DNA of 64,000 nucleotides from assembly GCA_963796685.1 (NCBI GenBank), contig CAWCMR010000022.1, positions 128,001 through 192,000 on the forward strand. Reading direction: 5' to 3'. Below, piece after piece: positions 23,278-39,586 of this stretch (positions are counted from its first letter, which is position 1; every line of letters starts with the position of its first letter). Below the pieces are notes generated by a model that saw only the letters and a list, made by a program, of their open reading frames with translations, was not told where the DNA came from and did not search any database. A program made the translations under genes and the position numbers. Source of the DNA: an uncultured delta proteobacterium (GTDB lineage: Bacteria > Myxococcota_A > Polyangia > Fen-1088).

Positions 23278-23763
23278 TCAGGGAGCGATCTTCTCGCTCA
23301 GCCACTGCCGGGTCGTCTCGACGGAGTCTTTCAACGCGACGTAGGACTCGTTGAAGCCACTCTTCACATCGTTCCAGGTGGACTCGGTAGCGTTCTGCGC
23401 CTGGTCGAGCTGTTGCTTCGTCTTGGTCCATTTCTCGCGCACGACTTCCAGCTTGGCCTTGGCCTCGGCCTTCGCCGCGCCACCGGAGTCGTCAACCTTG
23501 GCGGCGAGGAGGTTCAGGTCGTCCTGGAGCTCGCCGAGGTCTTTGTTCATCTTGGCGACGAATTCGGACCTCCGCGCGTAGGCGTAGTCCTCCATCGCTT
23601 GTGCGGCTTCTGCCGTTGCTGCCTTGGCCTTGCCGAGCTGAAGGGCCGCAGCTGAGTCTTGCTGCGTCCCATTCGTCGGTCTGTCGGCAGTGGATTTGCA
23701 GCCTACGGCCAGAACCCCAGCGGAAAAGATGAAGAGCGGGAAAGCCAGTTTCGAGTTGGTCAT
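23278..23763 (-). CDS. Helical coiled-coil lipoprotein
   Basis: Lipobox LAVGC; amphipathic helices ending in TWNDVKSGF. Confidence 0.75.
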   Translation of the reverse strand: MTNSKLAFPLFIFSAGVLAVGCKSTADRPTNGTQQDSAAALQLGKAKAATAEAAQAMEDYAYARRSEFVAKMNKDLGELQDDLNLLAAKVDDSGGAAKAEAKAKLEVVREKWTKTKQQLDQAQNATESTWNDVKSGFNESYVALKDSVETTRQWLSEKIAP

Positions 23764-23791: not shown

Positions 23792-23941
23792 TCAAGTCAG
23801 GCGGCGCCCCTGGATGATACGAACCAGGACCAGGACTACGGCGGCCACGAGAAGGATATGGATGAACCCTCCCATGGCGTGAGCCGTGAAGAATCCGAGT
23901 GCCCACAACACCAGAAGGATGACGGCGATTGTCCACAGCAT
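23792..23941 (-). CDS. lmo0937-family small membrane protein, 49 aa, absent from the ORF track
   Basis: MLWTIAVILLVLWALGFFTAHAMGGFIHILLVAAVVLVLVRIIQGRRLT. Confidence 0.85.
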   Translation of the reverse strand: MLWTIAVILLVLWALGFFTAHAMGGFIHILLVAAVVLVLVRIIQGRRLT

Positions 23942-23953
23942 GGTCGTCTCCGG

Positions 23954-24139
23954 TCACGAAATGGCGTTGCGAAGTGGGCGCGAGGTCTTGAAGCGTGGCG
24001 CGTGCCACAACATGTGCGAGATGGTCTGCGTGGCCAGACTGGAAACCTCTTGCGGGTTGGCGCCGTACTGCGCGGCCTTGTCGAATACGGTCAGGATCAA
24101 TTCGCCTAGGGGGACGGTCGCTTGCATTTGGGTCTTCAT
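23954..24139 (-). CDS. Small hypothetical protein (61 aa), first gene of a putative sigma54 operon
   Basis: RBS AAGG; LGELILTVFDKAAQY; lies directly behind the -24/-12 site. Confidence 0.7.
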   Translation of the reverse strand: MKTQMQATVPLGELILTVFDKAAQYGANPQEVSSLATQTISHMLWHAPRFKTSRPLRNAIS

Positions 24140-24169: not shown

Positions 24170-24290
24170 CCTACAGCAGGTTTCGGGCCATCAAGTAGTT
24201 GGCATTGAATTCAGCAGGTTGCATCGTGAATCGCGATTGTTCCTGGCTTGTTCAATCAAGGTGACGTAGCTTTCCCATCAAATCGAAGGA
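24170..24290. repeat. 121-bp direct repeat, copy 1 (promoter/enhancer cassette)
   Basis: 115/121 identical to 29144-29264 by manual alignment. Confidence 0.92.
24175..24190 (-). promoter_or_regulatory. sigma54 promoter TGGCCCGAAACCTGCT
   Basis: GG-N10-GC about 35 bp before ATG 24139; IHF-like ATCAAgtagTTG at 24190-24201; boxes at 24256 and 24278. Confidence 0.75.
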
Positions 24291-24299
24291 GTGGCTGGT

Positions 24300-24470
24300 G
24301 ACGAGGGAGGGGCAGAAAGCAGGGCGAAGGCGTCGACACCCCTACCGCGCCAGTCATTGAAATCGCCCGCCATGACTATCGCCGCCTCACAGGGGATGCG
24401 TAAATTGATGTAGGCAGCCTGCATGCGAAGCTGCTTGCGGCGCGAGGCCGCAAATAGCCCGAGATGGATC
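24300..24470 (-). pseudogene. Fragment of an endonuclease/exonuclease/phosphatase (YbhP-like)
   Basis: IHLGL...IVMAGDFNDWRG motifs with no start or end of the domain. Confidence 0.55.
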
Positions 24471-24492
24471 GGCTCCTTTTGACCAGTCCGGC

Positions 24493-24864
24493 TCATGCTG
24501 CGACGCGCGGGCGCCGGCGCATCGCGACCGTCGAGGTCGCGACTGCATCGTCGTTTCCGCGAAGACGCAGCCACAACTTCGCAAGTCCAGCCAGCTCTAT
24601 CTGGCGCACACGTTCACGCGTGACCGACAATCGACTGGCAATCTCTTCGAGAGTCATGCCGCCACGCTCAGCGGCTTCAAGCGCGCAGGCTTCGCGCACG
24701 ACAGGAAGGTGCATCTCTGCCGGCTTTGCGCCGCGGTTGTCTCGTCGTTCGGAAGTCAGGTTGAAACGGCACACGGTGTGTGGGCACGGGCCCGGAAGCT
24801 TTCGGCAAGCACCCCCCGTGATTTCGTGGAGATTGATGTGCAATTCGCGGGGAATGCGTGGCAT
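24493..24864 (-). CDS. Stand-alone sigma70 region-4-like HTH protein with a Cys-rich N-terminus
   Basis: MTLEEIASRLSVTRERVRQIE; CxxxxxxCxxxxC...CAL. Confidence 0.8.
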   Translation of the reverse strand: MPRIPRELHINLHEITGGACRKLPGPCPHTVCRFNLTSERRDNRGAKPAEMHLPVVREACALEAAERGGMTLEEIASRLSVTRERVRQIELAGLAKLWLRLRGNDDAVATSTVAMRRRPRVAA

Positions 24865-24918
24865 AGGACACCTCCAGGTCTGGAGTTGATGGGTCGTTTC
24901 GCGGATTCCAGTCGACCA

Positions 24919-24934
24919 AGCAGCTTTCGAGCCA
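24919..24934 (-). promoter_or_regulatory. sigma54 promoter TGGCTCGAAAGCTGCT
   Basis: GG-N10-GC upstream of 24864; IHF-like ATCAAccacTTA at 24954-24965; box TCAaagTGA at 25001. Confidence 0.7.
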
Positions 24935-24999
24935 TGAGCGAAACGCAGTAGAGATCAACCACTTACAGCATGGCGGGCGACAAAGGCCGGTTCCGTTCC

Positions 25000-25686
25000 A
25001 TCAAAGTGAAGTTGTATCTCCGTCCCCATCAAGGATCTCTCGCACCTTTGCCGAAAGCCCCACGACGTCAAAGGGCTTCTGGATGAACCCGTTGCAACCG
25101 CTGTCGAGGAGCTCCTGGGCCTGTCCTTCGATGCTGTAACCACTGGAGAGGAGCCGGCGCGGTCAAGACCTCGTAGCCGAGCTTCTGCAAGAGGCGAGCG
25201 CTGACATTCACGATCTGCTCCTCGTCGTCGACGACCAGGATGGTCCCGGTACCGCGCCGAAGGACCGCCGTGGGGGTCTTGTCCTCCACGGCCTGACGTT
25301 CGGTCGCGGGCAGGAGAAGCGTGAAGACCGTGCCCTTGCCCGTCTCGCTCTCGACCCCGATGAAACCTGCGTGGTTCTTGATGATGCCGTAGACCGAGGC
25401 GAGCCCCAGCCCCGTGCCCTGGCCAGGGCCCTTGGTTGTGAAGAAGGGTTCGAAGATCCTCGCCATGGTTTTGGCGTCCATTCCACATCCCGTGTCGGTG
25501 ACGATGAGTTTCGCGTAAAGGCCAGGCGGAACCCCGGTCTGTGCTCCGGGCCCGCTGTAACTCCTCGTTCTGCATCTCCAGCTCAATCTGGTGTACTTGC
25601 AGTTCGTGCAATAGCCGGCGCATCTCCAACGGCGTGTTGGCCCTTTCCGCGCATCCGTCACTCCCATAACTTCCCTTGATCCCATT
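25000..25686 (-). pseudogene. Internally deleted hybrid histidine kinase
   Basis: LLHELQVHQIELEMQNEEL N-terminus joined out of frame to HATPase (TDTGCGMD, FEPFFTTK, GTGLGL) and a partial receiver domain. Confidence 0.75.
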
Positions 25687-25692
25687 TCCCTA

Positions 25693-28281
25693 TTAGACCG
25701 ATTGATTCTGGCGCAGTGTCGCCTCGAGTGTCTTGGCTGCGGTGATATCGGCAAAGGTGATCACGACGCCATCAATGCGGTTGTCCAGCGTGCGGTAGGG
25801 CATGATGCGCACCGCGAACCAGCGCCCGTCGACGGTCTTCACCGGCGTCTCCTTGAACACCAGGGTTCGGAGGACAGTTTGCGCGTCGGAAGCGAGCTCG
25901 GGATAGACCAAATCCGAAGCAAGATCGCTGATGGGTCGATTCAGGTCGCCGGGAATGAGCTTGATGATCTTCGTCATCCGCGGGGTGAAGCGCCGCACCT
26001 TCAGCGCTTCATCCAGGAACAGGGTGGCGATGTCGGTGCTGTCCAGCAGGTTTCGCATGTCATCGTTGGCGTGCGATTCGGCGTCGACCTTGGCCTGCAG
26101 CTCGTGATTGAGGGTTTGCAGCTCCTCGTTCAGGGACTGCATTTCCTCCTTGGACGTGGTCAGCTCCTCGTTCGTGCTCTGCAGCTCCTCGTTGGTGGAC
26201 TGCAATTCCTCGTTGGCCGATTTGAGCTCTTCCTGGGACGTCTGCATTTCCTCCCGCGTGGATCGGATCTCCTCGCGCGCATGCCGTAGCTCCTTTTCCA
26301 GCCTCTCCTCGGACGCGGAAATGCGCGTGCGCTTGCCCGCCGGTTTATCGGCGGGGGACTCGCTCACCTCGGTGAACACGATCATCACCATCCCGCACAT
26401 CGCTGGCGGCTCGCGCAGCGGCTCGATGGTGACGTCAACAACCTGGACGACCCCGCGGTCTTTCAACCGCACGCGAATCTGCGCGGCGCCGCGCTGCTCT
26501 CGCAGTGCCTTCTGGAAGGCACCACCAAGCTCGTTGCGCAATCCCTCGCGGGCCATGGCATGGATGTTCCAGTTGGCTTTGCCGGCAGCCGGCTCGAGAT
26601 ACCTGCCCGTTCGCCCGCTGATATAGAGAATGTCCCCCTGGCCGTTGGTGAGCACGGCGGCGGGGGAATAGCGGGCGAGCAGAAGCTGCTCGGCCTGAGC
26701 TTGCAGATTGGGAAGCGCCACCCCTCTGCCAGCCGCCGGGTCCGTCGGACGTGGACGGGCATGGAAGGATGCCGGAAATTCGACCGGCGTGGCCCCGGGC
26801 TGTGCATCGAGGCGGCGATGGATCCGGTTTTTGCCGCCCTTCGGGGCAAAAAGGTCGGCGACCGGCCCCAGCGTCTCCGCGCTGCCCAGAAAGAGGATGC
26901 CGCCCGGACTCAGGCTGTAGTGAAAAATCGGAAGAAGCTTCGTTTGCAGCTCGGGCTCGAAGTAGATGAGAAGGTTGCGGCAACTCAGAATGTCCAGCTT
27001 GGTGAAAGGGGGATCCATGATGATGTTCTGGGTGGCGAAAACCACCGACTCGCGGATGTCCTGCCGCACTCGGTAGCCTTGCTCTTCCTTCACGAAGAAT
27101 CGGCCCAATCGCTCCACCGAAACGTCGCTGGCGATGCTGGTCGGGTAGCTTCCCTGTCTCGCTCTTTCGATGGAGTCCTTGTCGAGGTCGGTGGCGAAGA
27201 TCTGCAGCAGGTAGCTTCGGGCCGGCTGCGCCTCCGCCAATACCTCCCTGAAGATAATGGCCAGCGAATATGCCTCCTCTCCGGTCGAGCAGCCTGGCAC
27301 CCACGCCCGCAGTACCCCACCCATGGGGCGTTCCGACAGCAGGGCAGGGATGGCCTTTTTCTTCAGGTAGTCCCAGGCTTCCGGATCGCGGAAGAAGTTG
27401 GTTACGCCGATGAGGAGTTCCTTGAAGAGAATTGCGGTTTCCTGCGGGCTCTCCTGCATATAGCGCAAGTAGCCGGTGATACCGGCGATGTGGTGAAGTC
27501 CCATGCGCCGCTCGATGCGGCGGTAGATGGTGCTTCGCTTGTACTGCGAAAAATCGTGACCGGTCTGACTTCGCAAGAGGACGCATATCTTCTCGATCGC
27601 ACTTTCGGTCTTGGAGGCCAGGACGAGACCGGGAGAGGCTACGCGTGGAGGGCGGGCGAGGTAGGCTACGATCTTGTCAGCCAGTTCCTCGACGGGCGCC
27701 ACCACATCCGCCAGCCCTGCATCGATGGCGCTCCTGGGCATGGAGTCGAACTTGGCAGACGCGGGGCTTTGCACGAACACCGCCCCCCCCTTCTCTTTGA
27801 TGGCAGAGAGACCGAGGGTACCATCCGATCCCATTCCCGAGAGGAGCACCCCGATGCCCTGGGGCCCTTGGTCCGCGGCCAGGGAGCGCAGGAAAAGGTC
27901 AATGGGCAGACGCAGCCCATGCGGCGCCGCCGGTGCCAGCAAGTGCAGCACTCCGTGCAGGATAGACAGATCTTTGTTGGGAGGAATGACGTAGACGCGA
28001 TCAGGCTCGACCTTCAGGCGATCCTTGACCTGAAGAACCTTCATCGGTGTGGCCCGCGATAGCAGCTCGACCAACATGCCCTTGTGAGTCGGGTCCAAAT
28101 GTTGAACGATCACGAAGGCGAGGCCGCTCTTGTCCGGTAAGTGGCGCAAGAAGGTCTCGAGCGCCTCCAGACCTCCAGCCGAGGCACCGATGCCGACGAT
28201 GGGGAACGAAGGAGGCGTTCCCGCGACCAATTTGGTGGCTTTCTCCGCTTTCAGGGTTTTCAGTTGTCGTTTGCGAGTCAT
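25693..28281 (-). CDS. CheB methylesterase / CheR methyltransferase / PAS fusion
   Basis: GIGASAGG, QHL, GMGSDG; IGVTNFFRD, GCSTGEEAY, SCRNLLIY; NEELQS heptads; start set at MTRKRQ. Confidence 0.92.
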   Translation of the reverse strand: MTRKRQLKTLKAEKATKLVAGTPPSFPIVGIGASAGGLEALETFLRHLPDKSGLAFVIVQHLDPTHKGMLVELLSRATPMKVLQVKDRLKVEPDRVYVIPPNKDLSILHGVLHLLAPAAPHGLRLPIDLFLRSLAADQGPQGIGVLLSGMGSDGTLGLSAIKEKGGAVFVQSPASAKFDSMPRSAIDAGLADVVAPVEELADKIVAYLARPPRVASPGLVLASKTESAIEKICVLLRSQTGHDFSQYKRSTIYRRIERRMGLHHIAGITGYLRYMQESPQETAILFKELLIGVTNFFRDPEAWDYLKKKAIPALLSERPMGGVLRAWVPGCSTGEEAYSLAIIFREVLAEAQPARSYLLQIFATDLDKDSIERARQGSYPTSIASDVSVERLGRFFVKEEQGYRVRQDIRESVVFATQNIIMDPPFTKLDILSCRNLLIYFEPELQTKLLPIFHYSLSPGGILFLGSAETLGPVADLFAPKGGKNRIHRRLDAQPGATPVEFPASFHARPRPTDPAAGRGVALPNLQAQAEQLLLARYSPAAVLTNGQGDILYISGRTGRYLEPAAGKANWNIHAMAREGLRNELGGAFQKALREQRGAAQIRVRLKDRGVVQVVDVTIEPLREPPAMCGMVMIVFTEVSESPADKPAGKRTRISASEERLEKELRHAREEIRSTREEMQTSQEELKSANEELQSTNEELQSTNEELTTSKEEMQSLNEELQTLNHELQAKVDAESHANDDMRNLLDSTDIATLFLDEALKVRRFTPRMTKIIKLIPGDLNRPISDLASDLVYPELASDAQTVLRTLVFKETPVKTVDGRWFAVRIMPYRTLDNRIDGVVITFADITAAKTLEATLRQNQSV

Positions 28282-28320
28282 TTGGGTAGGGCTCCCGATT
28301 GTGAGCTTGGCCGAGCCTGA

Positions 28321-28336
28321 TGCATGGTCTGGGCCA
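28321..28336 (-). promoter_or_regulatory. sigma54 promoter TGGCCCAGACCATGCA
   Basis: GG-N10-GC 40 bp before the CheB/R start; the shared upstream box is not seen here. Confidence 0.55.
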
Positions 28337-28449
28337 GTCGAGGTTGTGCGAGCGAAGCGAGATGTTCGATGAGGCGAAGGCACCATTGGCTGCGCGCTTG
28401 ACGTACGCTCCTGGAGCTCACCGCAGCGAAGAGAGGATGAGGGTGCCCG

Positions 28450-29172
28450 ATGAATGGCAAGGATGACAAGCCGAAAGGCATCGCCGGACTGCGCTGGCGG
28501 GCCGAAGAGATCGCCCAGGGGCAAGGCGCTCTCTCGCCAAAGGAGCTCACGCTCATGTCGCGCGAAGAAATGCTGAAGCTTGTCCATGAGCTTCGCGTGC
28601 ATCAGATCGAGCTGAAGATGCAGAATGAAGAGCTGGTTCGGGCCCAATCGGACCTGACCGCGACCAGGGAGCGCTATTTCGATCTCTGTAACTTGGCGCC
28701 CGTGGGTTACTTCGTCGTCTCCCGCGAGGGGCGCATTTTGGAAACCAATTCGACCGGCGCTATCCTGCTGGGCCTTCCCCGGGCCGCTCTCATCAAACAG
28801 CCCATCACCAAAACGGGCCAAGCGCTCACGTGCGAGCTGCGGATGGTGAAGGCCGACGGAGCCGCATTCTGGGTTCGCCTGACAGCCACCACGCAGGCCC
28901 CCGCAGGCACCGACGGTGCGCCCGTGAGCCGCGTCGTGCTGAGCGACATAAGCGAGCAGAAACAGATGGAGCGAGACAATGCCATGCTGGATGCTCGACT
29001 GCAACAGACCGAGCTCCAGGGCGCCGAGACCGCAAGCCCTCGAGGGGAAAAGGTGGCAAAGGCAGCAGAGATCGGGGAAAGACCTCCGGAAGCTGAGTCT
29101 TGCGGCGTTCCATTCATGGCGTGCGCCGCGAAGAATCCGAGTCCCTACAGCAGGTTTCGGGCCGTCAAGTAG
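28450..29172 (+). pseudogene. Truncated PAS sensor (kinase domains lost)
   Basis: LVHELRVHQIELKMQNEEL, PAS (LAPVGY), DISEQKQME; ends before any H-box. Confidence 0.65.
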
Positions 29173-29264
29173 TCGGCAATGAATTCAGCAGCTTGCGTCG
29201 TGAATCGCGATTGTTCCTGGCTTGTTCAATCAAGGTGACGTAGGTTTCCCATCAAATCGAAGGA
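29144..29264. repeat. 121-bp direct repeat, copy 2, containing a minus-strand sigma54 site (CGGCCCGAAACCTGCT, 29149-29164)
   Basis: Matches 24170-24290; lies directly upstream of the XylR-N activator. Confidence 0.92.
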
Positions 29265-29276
29265 CTGGTGGTGGTG

Positions 29277-30929
29277 ATGAGGGCAGGCGATCTAGACCAT
29301 AAGGAATTGCTCGAGCTCGACCCGGAAGGAGGCGTGATTCGCTTCGCCGGACAGCGAGCGCTGCTGCTCGATGCAGTGGCCATGGGACTTCTGCGCAAAT
29401 ACCTCGTGGAAAACTTTGGTGCCACCGCGGCGCGCACCGTGCTGACTCAATTCGGCTTTGCCCACGGTTGGCGCATGGCCGAGGCCATGCAGGCCGAATT
29501 CCAGTGGGAGAACAAGGCGGAGTGGCAGCTCGCCGGTACCCGCATCCACACCCTCGAGGGTCTCTTTCGCTTGGAGTTGGAGAGCCAGGGACCTCTTTCC
29601 AAGCCGGGCATGACGCTCACGGCGTCCTACGAAGCGGAGCAACATCTCCTGCACTTCGGTCGCTCGGACGTGCCCGCGTGCTGGACCATTTGTGGCCTGA
29701 CCAGCGGCTACCTCAGCAAGAGCTCGGGGAAGAGATCTACGTCCTCGAAGACCGCTGTATGGGCAAGGGCGATGTGGCCTGCCACCTCATCGGCCGGACG
29801 CGTGCGGAGTGGGGTGACGAGCACGCGGAGGAGCTGCGTTTCTTCGAGGCGAAGCGGCTCGAGGACTGCCTCGACGTTTCGCTCCAGCGGGTCACGGAGA
29901 CGCTCAAGGTCGCCGAACAGAAGCTGCGCACCCACCGTCGCGCTCTGGTTCGCGTGGCCCGCGATGTCGAGGAACCGCTCGGGATCGTCGCCAAGAGCGT
30001 CGCTATGGCGCAGTTGGTGGATTTGGCGCGCCGGGTGGCCAAAGTCGATTCGACCGTTCTCATCACCGGGGAGAGCGGATCGGGCAAGGAGCGGGTTGCC
30101 CGACTGGTGCACGAAGAGTCCACGCGCGCCGCGGGGCCGTTCGTCGCCGTCAACTGCGGCGCCATCACCGAAACCCTGCTCGAAAGCGAGCTCTTCGGTC
30201 ACGCCCGCGGTGCGTTCACGGGCGCCACGCAAGATCGGCCGGGCCTGTTCGAGTCGGCCAACAGCGGGACGCTGCTGCTCGACGAAGTCGGCGAGGTCTC
30301 GCCGGGCATGCAGGTGAAGCTCTTGCGCGCGCTGCAAGAGCGGGAGATCCGGCGCGTGGGCGAGAACAAGAGTCGCAAGGTCGACGTGCGCGTGGTGGCT
30401 GCCACCAACCGCGACCTCGCCCACGGCGTGGCAGGCGGCAGTTTCCGCCAGGATCTCTACTATCGGCTCAAGGTCGTCGAGCTGCACGTCCCACCCCTGC
30501 GCGAGCGCAGAGACGACATCTTGCCCCTCGGCCGCGTGCTGCTCGCGAGCTCGGCACTGCAGATGAAGCGCAAGATCGCGGGGCTTGCCCCGGACGCCGC
30601 CGACCAGCTTCTGCGCTACGAGTGGCCGGGGAACGTGCGCGAGCTGGAAAACGCCATGGAGCGGGCCGTCGCGCTCGCTCGCGGAACCCGAGTCGAGCTC
30701 GAGGATCTGCCGGAGGAGATCCGCCAGGCACTGACGGCCCCCGTGGCCACCAAGGGGAAGGTGCGGCCGCTCGAAGAGGTCGAGAAGGAGTACATCCTCG
30801 CGGCCTTGGAGCTGCAATGACGGCAACCAGACCCACACCGCCCAGCAGCTCCACATCGGCTCGGCGACGCTCTACCGCAAGCTCAAGAGCTACGGTTTGA
30901 TCGGCAAGAAGCACGCACTCGCGAGCTAA
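29277..30929 (+). pseudogene. XylR-N/V4R sigma54-dependent activator with two frameshifts (about 29730 and 30815)
   Basis: [31 protein letters not shown]; [24 protein letters not shown]; Fis HTH (TAQQLHIGSATLYRKL) in a shifted frame. Confidence 0.88.
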
Positions 30930-32536
30930 ACCGGCGCCTCTCCTGCACCGATATCGCAGTCGAGCACCTCGCGGACCTTGTGCGCCAGATCCGTCGTGGT
31001 GAACGGCTTGCCGATGAAGTGCACTCCTTCGTCGACAACACCATGGTGGATGAATTCATTGTCGGCGTAGCCTGACATGTAGAGAACCTTGACGGCAGGT
31101 TGCTTCTGCTCCATCTCTTGCGCAAGCGCTCTGCCGCTCATCCGCGGCATGACCATGTCGGTCAGGAGGAGACGGATGGCGCCCGTGTGTTGTGACGAGA
31201 TCTGCAGGGCATCACCAGCAGAGGCGGCGGACAGCACACGGTAGCCAGCCGACTCGAGAGCTCTCACCGCGACCTTACGGATGGCCTCTTCATCCTCGAC
31301 CACGAGAATGGTTTCCGTACCCGTGGGTTGCCGCGTAACCGCGCGCAGTCGGGTGGAGGTCACTTTGAGGGAAGACTCACGCGGGAGAAAGATCTCGAAG
31401 GTGCTTCCTCGGCCCAATTCGCTTCGGACCCAGATGATGCCGCCTATCTGCTTGACGATGCCATACACCGTGGACAGGCCGAGCCCGGTCCCTTTGCCCT
31501 TCTCCTTGGTCGTGTAGAAGGGCTCGAAGAGTTGCGCCTTGGTCCGCTCGTCCATACCGCAGCCCGTGTCTGTGACCGCAAGCCGGATGTACCGGCCGGG
31601 CTTCATGGCCACGTGGCGTGCCGCGCGCGCATCGTCGATCTCCACGTTCGAGGTTTCGATGGTCAGCTTTCCGCCCTCTGACATGGCGTCGCGGGCGTTG
31701 ACGACCAAGTTCATGAGCACTTGTTCTATCTGGCCCTGATCGGCCCTCACCAAGCCCAGATCCGGCGCGAGAGCTTGGACGAATTCGATGTCCTCGCCGA
31801 GGATCCGCTGAAGCATGCTCTCGACTCCTGCGGAGACTTGGTTCAGATTCAGGGGCACTGGTTGCACAAGCTGCTTGCGCCCGAAAGCGAGGAGTTGTCG
31901 AATCAGCTGCGCTCCGCGATTCCCGGCCTTCTGCACCTCGAGAAGATCGTCCTTGAGAGGATCGCCCTCGCGTAGCTCCACGAGCGCGAACTCCGTGTAG
32001 CCAAGGATCACGGAAAGCAAATTGTTGAAGTCGTGGGCGATGCCACCCGCGAGACAACCGATGGCTTCCATCTTTTGAGAGGCCTGCAGTTGCGCTTCGA
32101 GTTTCTTGCGCTCCTCCTCGGCCCGTTTGCGTTGCGTGATGTCGCGGATGTTGCACTGGACCACTTTGGTCTGCCCCACCCAGTACACGTTGCTGACGAA
32201 TTCGACATTGATGAGCCGCCCGTCACGGGTCTCGAGCGGTAAATCGTCGTATCGGACATATTCCTTCTCTTGCAGCTCCCTGAAGACGTCGCGCGAGACG
32301 GCGATATCCTTGAAGGGACCCAGATCCCACACTGCTTTCCCGAGAAAGTCCTCGTGAGAATAGCCGAGCAGGGAGATCAGAAAGGGATTGGCATCGACCA
32401 CCCGTCCAGACTCGGCATCGAGAATCAAGATGCCATCCTTGGCCGATTCGAAGAGCCGTCGATAGCGCGTCTCGGACGCGCTAAGGTCATTGTCTGCCCG
32501 CTGGCGTTCGTTGGCGGTCAAGTATGCAGTCACCAT
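30926..32536 (-). CDS. PAS hybrid histidine kinase / response regulator
   Basis: PAS, AHDFNNLL, NARDAM, GTGLGL, receiver VEDE...TD...KPF; may be N-terminally truncated. Confidence 0.9.
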   Translation of the reverse strand: MVTAYLTANERQRADNDLSASETRYRRLFESAKDGILILDAESGRVVDANPFLISLLGYSHEDFLGKAVWDLGPFKDIAVSRDVFRELQEKEYVRYDDLPLETRDGRLINVEFVSNVYWVGQTKVVQCNIRDITQRKRAEEERKKLEAQLQASQKMEAIGCLAGGIAHDFNNLLSVILGYTEFALVELREGDPLKDDLLEVQKAGNRGAQLIRQLLAFGRKQLVQPVPLNLNQVSAGVESMLQRILGEDIEFVQALAPDLGLVRADQGQIEQVLMNLVVNARDAMSEGGKLTIETSNVEIDDARAARHVAMKPGRYIRLAVTDTGCGMDERTKAQLFEPFYTTKEKGKGTGLGLSTVYGIVKQIGGIIWVRSELGRGSTFEIFLPRESSLKVTSTRLRAVTRQPTGTETILVVEDEEAIRKVAVRALESAGYRVLSAASAGDALQISSQHTGAIRLLLTDMVMPRMSGRALAQEMEQKQPAVKVLYMSGYADNEFIHHGVVDEGVHFIGKPFTTTDLAHKVREVLDCDIGAGEAPV

Positions 32537-32555
32537 TCCCCGGTTAAGCTTTGAG

Positions 32556-32840
32556 TTAGGCGGCGGCGTGCCGGCTCGGGCTGAGGCTCAAGTGGCCGAA
32601 TGTCTCGGCGATGAGCTCGTGGCTTGCGGCGGTCCAATCCTCCTGATCGAAGCCATGGGCACAGCCGCGAGCCAGGAATTTTCCATAGGCCCGTTTGGCA
32701 ATGTCGGCATCCGAAGCCGACCGCACATCTATGCGCTGCAGGGTGGGGGCAGTCGAAGCACCCTCGGGGTGTCGGACTTGAGGGGAAAGATGATGCGTAT
32801 GATGAGGAATCCACTTCTTGCTTTGTCCTGCGGTTTCCAT
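32556..32840 (-). CDS. DUF2934-domain small protein
   Basis: IAKRAY.KF..RG..HG.DQEDW motif; AAGGAG RBS. Confidence 0.75.
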   Translation of the reverse strand: METAGQSKKWIPHHTHHLSPQVRHPEGASTAPTLQRIDVRSASDADIAKRAYGKFLARGCAHGFDQEDWTAASHELIAETFGHLSLSPSRHAAA

Positions 32841-32872
32841 GGGATCTCCTTCTTGGCCTAACGCCTTGGTCC

Positions 32873-32888
32873 TGCAGCATTCGGGCCA
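32873..32888 (-). promoter_or_regulatory. sigma54 promoter TGGCCCGAATGCTGCA
   Basis: GG-N10-GC; boxes TCAgaaTGA (32953) and TCAattCGA (32975). Confidence 0.75.
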
Positions 32889-32974
32889 CTGCCTGACCCC
32901 ATGACTTCAAGCCCTTGCGCTCGTGATTGTCTTGGAACTGCGATTCCTTCAATCAGAATGAAGTGTCTTCCAAT

Positions 32975-33535
32975 TCAATTCGATGGATAGATCGGGCGTT
33001 CCGGCTCCGGCGAGCTGCGCTCAGAAGTCAGATGGGGAGAGCCTTCCCGCCCGGGACTGCTGCACAGAAAGATGTTTGCCGGCTTCAGGTCCCGGTGAAC
33101 CACTCCCTGCGCGTTGGCGGCGGCAACGCCGCGCATGGCCGGCAATAACAGGGTCAGTGTCGTCTGCAGACTAAGGGCACCGTTCCTTGCCAAGTAGCTC
33201 CCAAGTGTTTCCCCATCGAACAATTCCATCACGATGCACGCCATCCCGTGGTGGTCGATGACGTCGAAGATATTGACCACATTGGGGTGATTGATGCTGC
33301 TCGCGGTTAAGGCTTCACGCCGAAACAGCTCGATGACGTCGGTGTTGGAAGCGAACGACTGAAGTATGAGCTTGAGCGCAACGCGCTTTCCCGTGTGCTC
33401 GTTGATTCCCGCCCAAACCGCGGCCATACCGCCCTTGGCGATAAGCCTCTCGACGCGATAGTGGAGCCCTACGAGCTGGCCAGGTCGCAGGATGGTCTCG
33501 ATGTTGTCGTGCTCGGGCATCTCTTTACCCATCAC
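32975..33535 (-). pseudogene. Truncated Hanks-type Ser/Thr kinase
   Basis: GGMAAVW, VALK, HPNVV, HRDLKPANIFL, then no DFG or APE. Confidence 0.8.
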
Positions 33536-33691
33536 CGCAACAAGGGTGCCATCGAAAAGAGCACCGATCGGCGGGGACGGGCTGTCGCTACCTCACTCGA
33601 AGTGAACGAGGTGGCAAGTCATCTTGATGGGGCTTCGCGTACTCTCTTGGAACTACGCGAAGATGACTTGTGCAAAGGGCGCGGCCGAATT

Positions 33692-33707
33692 TGGACCGTT
33701 TCTTGCG
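33692..33707 (+). promoter_or_regulatory. sigma54 promoter TGGACCGTTTCTTGCG
   Basis: GG-N10-GC before ATG 33736; boxes at 33619-33627 and 33597-33605. Confidence 0.7.
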
Positions 33708-33735
33708 TAGACCCTGACTTCAAAGGAGCTCAACC

Positions 33736-34329
33736 ATGCATTGCAGAGAGATCATGAGTCATGACGTTCAGTGGATCCTGCCTGGGAAATCCGTCGCGGA
33801 GGCCGCCAAGCTAATGGCCTTTCACAACCTGGGCGTGCTGCCGGTGTGCAGTGCCGACGGCAAACCCGTCGGAGTCATCACGGATCGTGATATCGCGTTG
33901 CGGGTGATCGGAAAGGACCGGCTTGCCGCACAGACCGTTGCGAAGGACGTGATGTCTGTTCCCGTGCACTCGGTGACGGAGGATTGCCCCGTGGAGCGCG
34001 CGGGCGAGATCATGGCCGAGGCGAGTGTGTCGCGCCTACTGGTGCTGGACAAAGACGGCCATCTCACCGGCATTGTCAGCGTGGCCGACCTGCTGGTTCA
34101 CGCGCCCGGGAAGCACGCCTTGGAAGCGGCCCGCGGCATCTACGCCAGAGAGATGGGTGACCGCTCCGCCGGCCACCCGCACCGCGCATCCAAGCCCACC
34201 CCCGAGTACTTCCATGGCGCGCGTGACAGAACCCCAGACCTCGATTCGGTCCCGGACAACCAAGCCCGCATCGAGGCCAACAGCGTGGTCCGAGGCGGCA
34301 GTAATGGCTTGAAGGAATTCCCGGGCTAG
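33736..34329 (+). CDS. CBS-domain protein
   Basis: GVITDRDI and GIVSVADL CBS pair; AAGGAG RBS. Confidence 0.88.
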   Translation: MHCREIMSHDVQWILPGKSVAEAAKLMAFHNLGVLPVCSADGKPVGVITDRDIALRVIGKDRLAAQTVAKDVMSVPVHSVTEDCPVERAGEIMAEASVSRLLVLDKDGHLTGIVSVADLLVHAPGKHALEAARGIYAREMGDRSAGHPHRASKPTPEYFHGARDRTPDLDSVPDNQARIEANSVVRGGSNGLKEFPG

Positions 34330-34389
34330 CAGCCCGCGGTAGGGGGCAGTGGACCGAGCGGCTTGTCTCGCCAGCCCCCTACACTTGCC

Positions 34390-34647
34390 TTATCGCAGGA
34401 GCAACCCCGCCGCCGCCCAGCCGCCTCCGATGAGGAGCACCAGCCACACGAAGTCGCCGCCCCGGCCCCAAGCACGGTGTTTGGCCGCCACGGGGTTGGG
34501 CGAGTAGGCCGCCTGCAGGGCACGCCGACGCTGAACGTACCTCGGGTAGGGCGGCCCCCAACCTCGGTACCCCCAGCCGTATCCGACGGGGGACAAGAAG
34601 AACATGAACATGAATCCCATCCAAAGAAACCACAACGTGTTGCTCAT
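34390..34647 (-). CDS. Small Trp/Gly-rich membrane protein, paralogue of 2-256
   Basis: MSNTLWFLW...YGWGYRGWGPPYPRYVQRRR...GGDFVW. Confidence 0.78.
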   Translation of the reverse strand: MSNTLWFLWMGFMFMFFLSPVGYGWGYRGWGPPYPRYVQRRRALQAAYSPNPVAAKHRAWGRGGDFVWLVLLIGGGWAAAGLLLR

Positions 34648-34675
34648 CGATGACTCGCTTTCGCTCCCAGTGCTA

Positions 34676-34691
34676 AGCAACGCCGGTGCCA
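34676..34691 (-). promoter_or_regulatory. sigma54 promoter TGGCACCGGCGTTGCT (near consensus)
   Basis: TGGCAC-N5-TTGCT about 30 bp before ATG 34647. Confidence 0.8.
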
Positions 34692-34780
34692 ATCTTCTAT
34701 GCGGCCGCGAAAGAGCCGAAAACACGGTCACCCGGGAATGCTCGACACGGTCACTCCGGTCGGCACTGGCACGCGCTCAA

Positions 34781-35515
34781 TCAAGATGAGGTGCTTTGGG
34801 GTCCATTCGAGAGAGAGGGCCGAGCGAAAAGCGCGCTATCGAGCTCGAGCAGATCGCCGATGCGTTTCACGCTGGCGTCCGCCTGCGGATAGCTTGCCAG
34901 GATCTTGGCATCGCGCGCGTAGTGTCCCTGGCGCACGAAGACGGTCGTCACCCGCGACTTCCAGCGCTTCTTGATGGCTGCAAGCAGGGCCAGCTTGTCG
35001 TCCACAACCACGTAGTGTGCTGCGGGGTGCCGGGCTTCCACGTCGGCCAGCTCGACTTCTTTGTGCACGTAGATCAGCACGCGCCCCTCGACCGCTTGGC
35101 GGAGCCCGGAGCGGTCTACCTTGTGGGGCTGGAACACGACGTCGCCGTCGGTAAGAAGAACCGCGGAGCCCAAGCGGTTGGCGTACTCGAGGACAGCGAG
35201 GGCTTTGGGAAAGAGCCGCTTGGCAAACGGGTATTCGATGAGAAATCGAGAAACCGCCAACAGCCCGAGGTCGTGGGGATAGTCACGGCGAAAGCCCTGC
35301 AGGGCGCCCAAGTAGTCGGCATAGCCAAGCCGGGCTCGTAGCTGCTCGAAGATCGCCCAGTAGCAGTGCGCCCGCTTGGGACCGACCTCGCGACGGAGGT
35401 AGGTATTGAGGTCGGCAATGACCTGGTCATTGTCCAGCAAGGTGTTGTCGACATCGAACAGGAAGACGATCTTCTCTCGACTTGCAGGATTGGAATTTTT
35501 GCGGGGCGCTCGCAT
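34781..35515 (-). CDS. HAD-family hydrolase
   Basis: FDVDNTLLD, TDGD, VDDK. Confidence 0.85.
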   Translation of the reverse strand: MRAPRKNSNPASREKIVFLFDVDNTLLDNDQVIADLNTYLRREVGPKRAHCYWAIFEQLRARLGYADYLGALQGFRRDYPHDLGLLAVSRFLIEYPFAKRLFPKALAVLEYANRLGSAVLLTDGDVVFQPHKVDRSGLRQAVEGRVLIYVHKEVELADVEARHPAAHYVVVDDKLALLAAIKKRWKSRVTTVFVRQGHYARDAKILASYPQADASVKRIGDLLELDSALFARPSLSNGPQSTSS

Positions 35516-35530
35516 GGGATTGGGCCGAGG

Positions 35531-36271
35531 TCACAAGTGTACCAGGAACTCGTTCAACGCGACGACGACCTCGGCGGGGATTTCGTGTCCGCCGTCGAAG
35601 GGGAACCAAGTCACCAGCATTCCGGCGGCCGCCATCTCGGCGTGCATGCGATCCGCGATCTCGAACGATAGGATGGGATCGGTTCTGCCGTGGGACATGA
35701 AGACGTGCAGGCCTTTGCGGTGGGCGTAGTTCTGCCGCCACGACGCCTCGTCGACCGGGGCGCCCGAAAGCAGTACCAGCGCGCGCAGAGGTTCGTCCGA
35801 TTGGAACGCCACCTGGGCCGCCACCATGGCCCCTTGCGAGAAGCCGCCGAGAATGAAGGGCTGCGAGGCGCGGTTGCCCCGCCGCGCAAGCAGCGCGCGC
35901 ACAGCTTGCGCCGCGACCACGATGCCCGCGGGTTTCTCCGCGGAGAGATCGGCGCCCAGCGCTCCATCGCGCATGTTCGACGCCAGGTCCAAATGCCACC
36001 ACGCGCGCCCTGTGGGTGCTCCGTCCGTGCGCTTTTCCGACTGGGGTCCGCGCGGAAAGATGAAGCGGGTGCTGGGCGGCATGTGGATGGACTTCAAGAA
36101 GGGCAGCCAATCCTTCTCCGACGAGCAGTAGCCGTGCAGCAGGACGACGGTGGGCGGGCCTTTGCCGCCCTTGGTGATCGCGGACAGGCTCGGGACGCGG
36201 GGCGGTCGTGCCATGGCGCTCGCGACCACGACAACTCCTAGTAAGCCAAGTACAGTTCGCCTCCGATTCAT
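35531..36271 (-). CDS. Phospholipase/carboxylesterase (alpha/beta hydrolase), exported
   Basis: LLHG, GGFSQG nucleophile elbow, HGRTDP, GGHEI. Confidence 0.88.
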   Translation of the reverse strand: MNRRRTVLGLLGVVVVASAMARPPRVPSLSAITKGGKGPPTVVLLHGYCSSEKDWLPFLKSIHMPPSTRFIFPRGPQSEKRTDGAPTGRAWWHLDLASNMRDGALGADLSAEKPAGIVVAAQAVRALLARRGNRASQPFILGGFSQGAMVAAQVAFQSDEPLRALVLLSGAPVDEASWRQNYAHRKGLHVFMSHGRTDPILSFEIADRMHAEMAAAGMLVTWFPFDGGHEIPAEVVVALNEFLVHL

Positions 36272-36319
36272 GCACCTGCGTCCGGCTGATCCGTGCCTGG
36301 ATCCATAGCGCCCGAACGG

Positions 36320-36622
36320 CTACGCCGCCAGCTTCGAGCTGGCGGTTAGCGCGGGTAGGCTGGTCCAGCAGTGGCCGCAACGCGAAGCCCCGAGCGCGCA
36401 TGTGTGCTTGCACGTCGGGCACTCGCGAAATTTGGGCTCGGTGCCGAGATCCAGCATCTCGACCAGGCGCGACCAGGTCGTGTCGAGCGCGGACTTGGGG
36501 GTCTGGCTTTCGGCGGTCGTGGCCGCGCCAGGGGCGAGCGCAATCTCCTTGCCCACGGCCGCAACCAGGGTGCGCAGCCGGGACAGATCGGCACCAGAGA
36601 ACGAGAGCATCAGATTGTTCAT
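36320..36622 (-). CDS. Small protein with a C-terminal zinc ribbon
   Basis: CPTC...CGHC; AGGAG RBS; sigma54 site upstream. Confidence 0.7.
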   Translation of the reverse strand: MNNLMLSFSGADLSRLRTLVAAVGKEIALAPGAATTAESQTPKSALDTTWSRLVEMLDLGTEPKFRECPTCKHTCALGASRCGHCWTSLPALTASSKLAA

Positions 36623-36647
36623 GGACTATCTCCTGGGCAGGATCCAC

Positions 36648-36663
36648 AGCACGTTCCGGGCCA
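36648..36663 (-). promoter_or_regulatory. sigma54 promoter TGGCCCGGAACGTGCT
   Basis: GG-N10-GC 26 bp before ATG; box TCAtaaTGG at 36731. Confidence 0.7.
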
Positions 36664-36819
36664 CCCGGTCGAAGTGAATCATTCCCGGCACCTGGCGCGC
36701 CGCCGCCAGCTGCAGCAGCCGCGGATCCCATCATAATGGTGGTGCCGCTGCGTCGTTTCGACGGAGCCGAAGCGATGAAGTGGGTGGCGGGACAGCGTAT
36801 CTGGGGTAGGACGTAACGG

Positions 36820-38552: not shown

Positions 38553-39586
38553 CCATGGACCACGAAATCCAACCTGCCGAGCTGAGACGCGCTGTCACTC
38601 GACACGAGATCGCGGCCTGGATTTTGATGGCCGCTGGGCTGCTCCTGGTGTTGAAGCTGCGCCTGCTCTCGGCGCTCTTGGCAGGACTGCTGGTGTACGA
38701 GCTTGTCCACATCGCCGTGCTGAGGCTGCGGCGCCGACTGTCGAACAAGCGAGCCGAGATGGTGGCGGTGACAACTCTGGCGTTCCTTGTCATCGGCGTG
38801 GTGGCGGCCGCGGTGATGGGTTTGGTGGCCCTGGTACGTAGTGAAGGGCATCTCGCCAACTTGCTGGAAAAGCTGGCCGACAGTGTCTCTCTCGCGCGGG
38901 CCAACCTGCCGGCCGCACTGTCTGAAGGGCTGCCGGCCAACGCCGACGCATTGAAGGACGCGACCGTGGATTGGTTGCGATTGCACGCGAAGGAGATTCG
39001 CACCCTCGGGGCCGACTTTGGCCGGACGCTCGTCCACATCGTCGTCGGACTGGTGATCGGCGTGATGCTGTCGCTGACCGACCTGCGCTCACGCAAGGTC
39101 GAACGGCCCTTGGCGCACGCGTTGGCCGAACGCATGTCCCGCCTGGGCAATGTCTTTCGCCGCATCATCTTCGCGCAGCTTCGCATCTCGGCCATCAACA
39201 CTTTTCTGACCGCCGTATTTCTTCTGGCCGGACTGCCGATCTTCGGTGTGCATCTGCCGCTTGCCAAGACGCTGGTGGTCCTGACCTTCGTGGTGGGCCT
39301 CTTGCCGGTGATTGGCAATCTGATCTCGAACACGGTGGTGGTCGTGGTCGGACTCAGTGTCTCACCCTACGTCGCGTTAGCCGCATTGATATTTCTGATC
39401 GTTATTCACAAGCTGGAGTACTTTCTCAACGCGCGCATCGTGGGCGCGCAAATCAACGCGCGAGCCTGGGAGCTCCTGACGGCCATGCTGCTGATGGAAG
39501 CCGCGTTCGGTGTCGCCGGTGTCGTCGCGGCGCCCATCTACTACGCGTACGTGAAGGACGAGCTGACCGCGCAGGAGTTGGTATGA
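38553..39586 (+). CDS. AI-2E family transporter
   Basis: Multi-TM; AQLRISAIN, LPVIGN, HKLEYFLNARIVG. Confidence 0.85.

Follow-up and report, generated by a model that had tools for sequence, protein, structure and literature searches.

A series of small genes in the genome of an uncultured delta proteobacterium (GCA_963796685.1), each preceded by a sigma-54 promoter, raises the question of whether these genes are controlled together and, if so, by which protein. The genes lie in a stretch of 64,000 nucleotides (contig CAWCMR010000022.1, positions 128,001 to 192,000, forward strand; hereafter the window), which is C22:128001-192000 of the genome labelled G000, with contigs C5, C8, C9, C22 and C25. 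A sequence-only reading had described sigma-54 sites with upstream boxes and assigned them to one bacterial enhancer-binding protein (bEBP) encoded at 29277. The analysis reported here indicates that the two-box sigma-54 promoters probably constitute a stress-protection regulon run by an activator of a XylR_N-V4R clade, represented by the protein at 29277 and a paralogue on C9.

Two-box sigma-54 promoters in the window

The seven GG-N10-GC sites were all re-found with their boxes at 24175, 24919, 29149, 32873, 33692, 34676 and 36648 (P1 to P7). Six of them lie 26–55 bp before a gene start, as had been reported (+36, +55, +33, +29, +29 and +26 bp in order); the exception is 29149, where the -24 element reads CGG and no convincing gene stands behind. 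The boxes are two imperfect dyads 21–22 bp apart, with the data consensus MCTTCAWNTTGATKG for the proximal and CNWTCRAWTTGANGG for the distal box. The proximal box lies 65–69 bp from the -24 GG, or whole helical turns away from that distance. In site order the distances are 66, 67, 66, 65, 65, 90 and 68 bp, in agreement with the earlier measurement of 65–68 bp for six sites and 90 bp for 34676. Distal boxes 22 bp beyond the proximal one are present at 24275, 29249, 32972 and 33594, the four already noticed, and at 36750; the latter and the distal box of P6 (34799, spacing 21 bp) had been missed. No distal box was found at 22 bp in P2. The elements are as follows.

24175..24190, minus strand: sigma-54 -24/-12 element of P1
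24209..24221, minus strand: IHF-like site of P1, 19 bp before the GG, 2 mismatches
24253..24289, minus strand: box pair of P1 (proximal 24253-24267, distal 24275-24289)
24919..25012, minus strand: P2 (sigma-54 24919-24934, IHF-like 24953-24965, proximal box 24998-25012)
29149..29263, minus strand: P3 (sigma-54 29149-29164, IHF-like 29183-29195, boxes 29227-29241 and 29249-29263)
32873..32986, minus strand: P4 (sigma-54 32873-32888, IHF-like 32905-32917, boxes 32950-32964 and 32972-32986)
33594..33707, plus strand: P5 (boxes 33594-33608 and 33616-33630, weaker sigma-54 element 33692-33707)
34676..34813, minus strand: P6 (sigma-54 34676-34691, boxes 34778-34792 and 34799-34813, displaced by two helical turns to 90 bp)
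36648..36764, minus strand: P7 (sigma-54 36648-36663, boxes 36728-36742 and 36750-36764)

Sites resembling those of integration host factor (IHF) were taken as having at most 2 mismatches to the E. coli consensus. They occur at a conserved position in P1 (24209-24221), P2 (24953) and P4 (32905). The last two match sites reported previously at 24954 and 32906, and a third reported at 24190 was misplaced. No IHF-like match stands at the conserved position in P5, P6 or P7 (33692, 34676 and 36648). P1 and P3 belong to one duplication of 140 bp with 92% identity and are not independent, as had been recognized. P3 is the duplicated copy of the activator's divergent promoter, and its distal box ends 14 bp from the activator ATG. 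Comparison with shuffled sequence favors the box: within the 130-nt stretches upstream of the six independent promoters, a box with at most one mismatch appeared anywhere in just 0.3–2.9% of 2000 dinucleotide shuffles, a lenient test because the box pattern was derived from the same six promoters. In P7, a 16-bp block with a short palindrome (36664-36690, minus strand, upstream of the -24 element) is invariant in four orthologous promoters, where much of the spacer has diverged. This block is not IHF-like and may be the site of a second regulator.

Extent across the genome

Matrices trained on the six window promoters were applied to the remainder of the 7.3-Mb genome, with distances of 20–500 bp allowed. 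Held-out pairs at 65–68 bp amounted to 6 of 6 at a strict cut-off of 15/15, 6 of 16 at 13/13 (0.07 expected) and 9 of 263 at 10/10 (2.1 expected). A scan at a low threshold (9/8) gave mostly noise, and stricter cut-offs were required. In a reciprocal scan, for which the matrices had been seeded from G000 and then refit on other genomes, 13 of 602 sigma-54-like sites had a pair within 40–110 bp, and all 13 pairs were at 65–68 bp. Sixteen promoters are recognized in total, including three further ones with weaker core scores in the reciprocal scan. They form two clusters, 13 on C22 (105–165 kb) and 3 on C9 (24–30 kb), each with one copy of the XylR_N-V4R activator. The genome also carries rpoN, IHF/HU-family genes and about 42 bEBPs.

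The activator and its two copies

29277..30929, plus strand: XylR_N-V4R-AAA+-HTH sigma-54 activator (Pfam domains; frameshifts near 29728 and 30815)

The domains XylR_N, V4R, AAA+ (with GAFTGA) and HTH_8 place the activator in the XylR/DmpR structural subfamily. The C9 paralogue has 84% DNA identity with it and one frameshift near its start. The ratio of non-synonymous to synonymous substitution rates (dN/dS) between the two copies lies near 0.1 in each of the three pieces, and both window frameshifts are absent from a related soil strain (one contig per frameshift). The window frameshifts are therefore likely to be recent or assembly errors; in a very small sample of the assembly, 1 of 13 loci was split. 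The C9 activator gene points away from the genes of a 61-aa peptide and an lmo0937-family peptide, and in the window this unit is split by about 5 kb between the two 140-bp promoter copies. The clade comprises at least 120 proteins with 79–90% identity in the sensor region. In a quick tree of 49 full-length rows it forms a single branch of 43 rows with a Shimodaira–Hasegawa-like approximate likelihood ratio support (SH-aLRT) of 99, and its recognition helix is near-constant.

Both activator copies are accompanied by a CheB/CheR-like fusion, a PAS protein and a histidine kinase (25068-29172 and C9:17761-23456, 83–85% identity). The window histidine kinase (25068-25754) is a fragment, and PAS kinases are also frequent among predicted targets. 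Around the C9 locus lie three copies of a 501-aa transposase-like open reading frame (ORF) and an integrase-like gene (C9:15790-36809; labels from reading the sequence). A stand-alone XylR_N-V4R protein of about 200–240 aa lacking AAA+, followed by a tiny ORF, is encoded at C25:221450-222170 (also L003 and L008) and is possibly a trans-acting sensor. No clade-type box pair was found at this sensor-only gene or at the XylR-type paralogue on C8.

Conservation in other genomes

The cross-genome scan covered 79 loci: 54 orthologues at 70% identity or above, 8 at 60–69%, which were kept separate from both groups, and 17 other bEBPs. The pair with a promoter at 64–69 bp was found at 29 of 54 orthologue loci, 1 of 8 at 60–69% (L066, apparently a broken in-clade gene) and 0 of 17 other bEBPs. 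Upstream DNA was available for 47 orthologues, and 41 of these have a box pair 88–99 nt before the match start, accompanied in 36 by a divergent sigma-54 site; none of 7 outgroup genes has the pair. The distal-box flank beside the activator partly doubles as a ribosome-binding site, so that conservation at this flank may be overestimated. By their titles, the carriers are Myxococcota, Holophagaceae and Thermoanaerobaculia (Acidobacteriota), Gemmatimonadota and Eiseniibacteriota, and transfer of the activator between phyla is no more than suggested.

The distances in 56 dereplicated promoters, with spacers less than 60% alike, were 45–47 bp (2), 56–59 (13), 65–69 (33), 78 (1), 89–91 (3), 101–102 (2), 164 and 193. 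Helical phasing of about 10.7 bp persists when the main peak is removed (n = 23, mean cosine 0.74), and an IHF-like site lies 18–19 bp before the GG in 21 of 44 promoters. Among 60 relatives, the mean number of pattern matches was 5.4 in 20 orthologue carriers vs 0.65 in 40 others, and four or more matches occurred in 13 of the carriers vs none of the others, with a loose pattern that admits chance hits. At P4, the promoter and first codons are retained in relatives and the gene behind varies, GrpE in G002 and DUF2934 here (window 32530-32873; L125); in a related strain, 698 letters take the place of 294. Genes may thus have been exchanged behind a cassette that stays the same.

Sensor domain and sister clade

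Pocket residues were mapped to DmpR through the 6iy8 alignment. The zinc site (Cys/Glu/Cys/Cys) is retained in 43 of 43 clade rows, the equivalent of Trp128 in 0 of 43 and that of His100 in 22 of 43; Tyr155 is replaced by Leu and Phe170 by Val in 41 of 43 each. In the DmpR study, Trp128 is termed strictly conserved, and His100 and Trp128 hold the phenol hydroxyl (PMC7264223). The clade thus lacks the His/Trp pair of the phenol-responsive DmpR/MopR/PoxR proteins. Control of an aromatic catabolic operon, the other mark of that group, was seen for 0 of 95 scanned predicted targets, and the MobR model scored 351 bits against a cut-off of 999. Its activator would work in a DmpR-Po-like manner within the XylR/DmpR structural subfamily, outside the phenol-responsive group.

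Five sister proteins retain both His and Trp. Three of the five genes face a yceI start, with doxX next in two. The related site in between reads TCA-N3-TGA or nearly so, but its flanks differ and the spacing is about 20 bp. Because motif and sensor change together with the clade, the assignment of activator to site is supported. In L050-L052, a XylR-type activator with an intact phenol pocket is divergent from yceI(-doxX) and has its own site; this is a candidate phenolic/quinone stress module. The proposal that a single activator, the protein at 29277, reads the boxes has therefore held up: the pair lies directly upstream of most orthologues and tracks the gene across genomes, and a sister clade has the same core. 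The 29277-clade activator is supported as the best driver among those considered.

Predicted target genes

The genes behind the window promoters are listed below.

23278..23763, minus strand: sll1863-family stress-response protein, lipoprotein-like, 161 aa (NCBIfam NF052504, 49 bits vs cut-off 35)
23792..23941, minus strand: lmo0937-family (DUF5670) membrane peptide, 49 aa (Pfam/NCBIfam)
23954..24139, minus strand: conserved 61-aa orphan peptide, first P1 gene
24493..24864, minus strand: stand-alone sigma-70 region-4 protein, 123 aa, predicted P2 target (Pfam PF04545)
32556..32840, minus strand: DUF2934 protein, 94 aa, predicted P4 target (Pfam PF11154)
33736..34329, plus strand: CBS-pair protein, 197 aa, predicted P5 target (Pfam PF00571)
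34390..34647, minus strand: Trp/Gly-rich membrane peptide, 85 aa, predicted P6 target (no family match)
36320..36622, minus strand: 100-aa protein with two CxxC pairs, predicted P7 target

The sll1863-family gene is likely the third gene of the P1 operon because of its co-orientation. Homologues of the 61-aa peptide follow promoters of this type on C9 and in L009, L014, L049, L059 and L154; the peptide gave no Pfam or NCBIfam match, and an Atlas search returned just unnamed clusters under 0.9. The 85-aa peptide has a paralogue behind a promoter at C22:127823. The P7 target had been called a Zn-ribbon protein, a label that Pfam and NCBIfam do not support, with only the two CxxC pairs visible. 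Behind it, in the same orientation, come an esterase gene (35531-36271) and a HAD gene (34781-35515), both possibly co-transcribed with it. Next to the edge of the P1 duplication, the short ORF 24278-24574 resembles a piece of an endonuclease/phosphatase gene (no Pfam match).

Elsewhere in the genome, groES is a predicted target, with groEL and a pirin-like gene behind it. Further predicted targets encode an OmpA protein, a sugar transferase, an sll1863-like protein and the 85-aa paralogue, and a PRC-barrel-like gene that precedes glycogen phosphorylase is another. Some of these labels derive from Pfam matches on orthologues; those of groEL and pirin come from reading the sequence. With GroES-GroEL, the OmpA protein, the sugar transferase and the PRC-barrel gene among the predicted targets, the regulon is not limited to small proteins, as had been described.

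Across genomes, 95 predicted targets were scanned with Pfam, and 31 had no match. The matches include ice-binding-like proteins (9), PAS histidine kinases (7) and sigma-70-type factors (4); three each of CsbD (one just under the cut-off), pirin, DUF4398 and OmpA; and two each of BON, SPFH, GroES, AI-2E, RelA/SpoT-domain, GGDEF and other bEBPs. Single matches include Hsp20, GrpE, USP, superoxide dismutase, PRC, SOUL, YihY/BrkB, VIT1, DUF2934, DUF5670 and a sugar transferase. Further matches, to WrbA and to sll1863 stress proteins, came from NCBIfam, and envelope lipoproteins are also among the predicted targets. The set is thus broadly stress-protective, of the SigB/RpoS/EcfG type, with the genome's own csbD and dps outside it. 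The targets in relatives uphold only the stress part of the stress/dormancy regulon proposed earlier. No SigB/F/G or RpoS above the cut-off was found in the 88.6%-complete genome, in a search that left EcfG/PhyR aside.

The most frequent type of first target in the different phyla is the ice-binding-like (PF11999) lipoprotein (L021, L046, L057, L060, L062-L064, L066 and L171), a hint of freeze or desiccation stress. The GC content of C22 is lower at 110–160 kb (0.59–0.62 vs about 0.65). A low-GC stretch at C22:95954-146000 encodes a 2904-aa protein, glycogen phosphorylase, sugar-phosphate enzymes and YtxH-, YflT- and ice-binding-like genes, and appears to be a storage and stress island.

Weighing of the explanations

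Several findings weigh against a stress regulon run by the 29277 clade. Both activator copies are frameshifted in the assembly, and no convincing box pair with a promoter was found at the genome's own csbD (C5) or dps (C9). The targets were chosen by a heuristic first-ORF rule (130 picks, of which the 95 scanned exclude duplicates and doubtful picks), and the two most frequent types, ice-binding-like lipoproteins and PAS histidine kinases, are not classic stress genes. A single genus accounts for 11 of the 20 carriers in the test on relatives. In 300 genomes of the phylum, a strict pattern, which recovers only 8 of the 16 sites of G000, matched 5 of 26 carriers and 4 of 274 others. Of these four non-carriers, one has a split orthologue, one looks like chance and the others are G239 and G268. 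No orthologue was found in G239, G268 or G040, the last from the earlier genome set (89–94% complete), despite real-looking sites. Because the strict pattern is scarce among carriers in the phylum, the large predicted regulon is supported for the source genus and a few relatives; elsewhere, either the regulon is mostly local or the strict pattern lacks sensitivity.

The same activator and sites could also serve a sensor that is still DmpR-like, with phenolic or quinone compounds inducing a protective, non-catabolic response. The activator resembles DmpR/CapR over its full length (6iy8, E 6e-89), the His100 equivalent survives in about half of the clade, pirin and WrbA are among the targets, and the sister clade, with His and Trp, uses a related box to drive yceI, which doxX follows at loci that extend far enough to show it. 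An aromatic sensor is nevertheless unlikely: the Trp128 equivalent is replaced in every clade row, Tyr155 and Phe170 have nearly always become aliphatic, no aromatic ring hydroxylase or ring-cleavage enzyme occurs among the 95 scanned targets (0/95), and the breadth of the targets (chaperones, CsbD, sugar transferase) goes beyond detoxification. Less probable still is that the sites are real and read by another protein, such as the intact C8 paralogue, the PAS bEBP at 38971 or another of the bEBPs in the genome. The C8 paralogue has its own promoter with the same TCA-N3-TGA core, but its flanks (TTTCA...TGAAA), 20-bp spacing and recognition helix differ. The frameshifts in both clade copies and the three genomes with sites and no orthologue found would suit another reader; against it, the motif follows the 29277 clade across phyla, the related soil strain is free of both window frameshifts, and dN/dS is low over the whole gene.

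That the fixed spacing is a by-product of promoter-cassette copying, or chance, with no shared regulation implied, has next to no probability and is largely refuted. P1, P3, C22:122869 and C9:30094 do form one duplication family, and a few other pairs have weak spacer similarity (z 3–4), but most of the 16 promoters share no sequence outside the motifs. The 56 promoters with dissimilar spacers are still phased, and P7 orthologues retain the boxes while much of the spacer diverges. The stress-protection regulon under the 29277-clade activator is thus the preferred explanation.

Comparison with known systems

DmpR, XylR, MopR and PoxR (PDB 6iy8, 5kbe, 5fru; PMC7264223, PMC3063778, PMC13682980) share with the clade the XylR_N-V4R-AAA+-HTH architecture and the zinc ligands, as well as a gene divergent from a sigma-54 promoter and two palindromic upstream sites. 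The IHF site that they have near the core promoter has a candidate counterpart in about half of the clade promoters. The clade differs in the loss of the phenol-binding Trp, a variable His, stress and envelope targets, and about 16 promoters in place of one or two catabolic operons. Its sites also lie just 95–120 bp or so from the inferred start, unlike those of the DmpR/XylR group. Among regulators of Myxococcota, Myxococcus xanthus PexR is likewise a one-component bEBP of a stress response with tandem palindromes and a metal-binding sensor, but it has a GAF sensor, the site CACCG-n6-CGGTG and a small regulon (ahpCD, katB) (PMC12754779). M. xanthus Nla28 also has a large sigma-54 regulon, linked to starvation stress, but with an 8-bp half-site CT[C/G]CG[C/G]AG and mostly intragenic promoters (PMC9765219), whereas the clade promoters stand just before gene starts at phased distances. 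OrpR is a redox-sensing one-component bEBP with another site and a PAS sensor (PMC8359166). The sites of PexR, Nla28 and OrpR did not match the box.

In the Desulfovibrio vulgaris sigma-54 regulome, bEBP genes likewise adjoin their own promoters, and regulons mostly comprise 1–4 operons, the largest 12 (PMC4641369). Because most are so small, about 16 promoters make a large regulon. That paper makes no mention of V4R or XylR (PMC4641369). No description of the clade or motif was found in a literature search that left subscription papers, figures and motif databases (RegPrecise) outside its scope.

The general stress regulons of SigB, RpoS and EcfG contain CsbD, BON, USP, WrbA and operons with YtxH and YflT. 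They share target types with the clade regulon, including the lmo0937 family, whose lmo0937 is lowered by a SigB inhibitor in Listeria (PMC3225968). The clade regulon would depend on sigma-54 and one bEBP, with promoters of the -24/-12 type, whereas each of the three is run by an alternative factor of the sigma-70 family.

Proposed mechanism

On general bEBP biology, an activator dimer would bind each box on one DNA face, IHF would bend the spacer between boxes and promoter, and the AAA+ domain would open sigma-54 RNA polymerase, with a start about 12 nt after the GC. Negative autoregulation is proposed as well, because the boxes abut the activator start. The weakest part of the proposal is the signal: there is about an even chance that the remodelled V4R pocket, which contains zinc, reads a redox/electrophile cue or a small molecule other than a phenol.

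Implications

XylR/DmpR-type proteins are annotated nearly everywhere as regulators of aromatic degradation, and members of this clade would be misread in that way. The clade supplies a precise binding-site prediction, a promoter geometry and a target list for stress protection in largely uncultured Myxococcota and Acidobacteriota. The sister clade, with a phenol pocket and yceI-doxX, and the derived clade without the pocket make a natural before-and-after pair for a change of V4R signal and the growth of a regulon. Tentatively, and with the balance somewhat against so broad a claim, the system may be a sigma-54-based general stress response of soil and sediment Myxococcota and Acidobacteriota, in which a XylR-derived one-component activator without a phenol pocket would be the functional counterpart of SigB, RpoS and EcfG, moving between phyla on stress islands and gaining genes whenever a ready-made enhancer-IHF-promoter cassette is copied or swapped.

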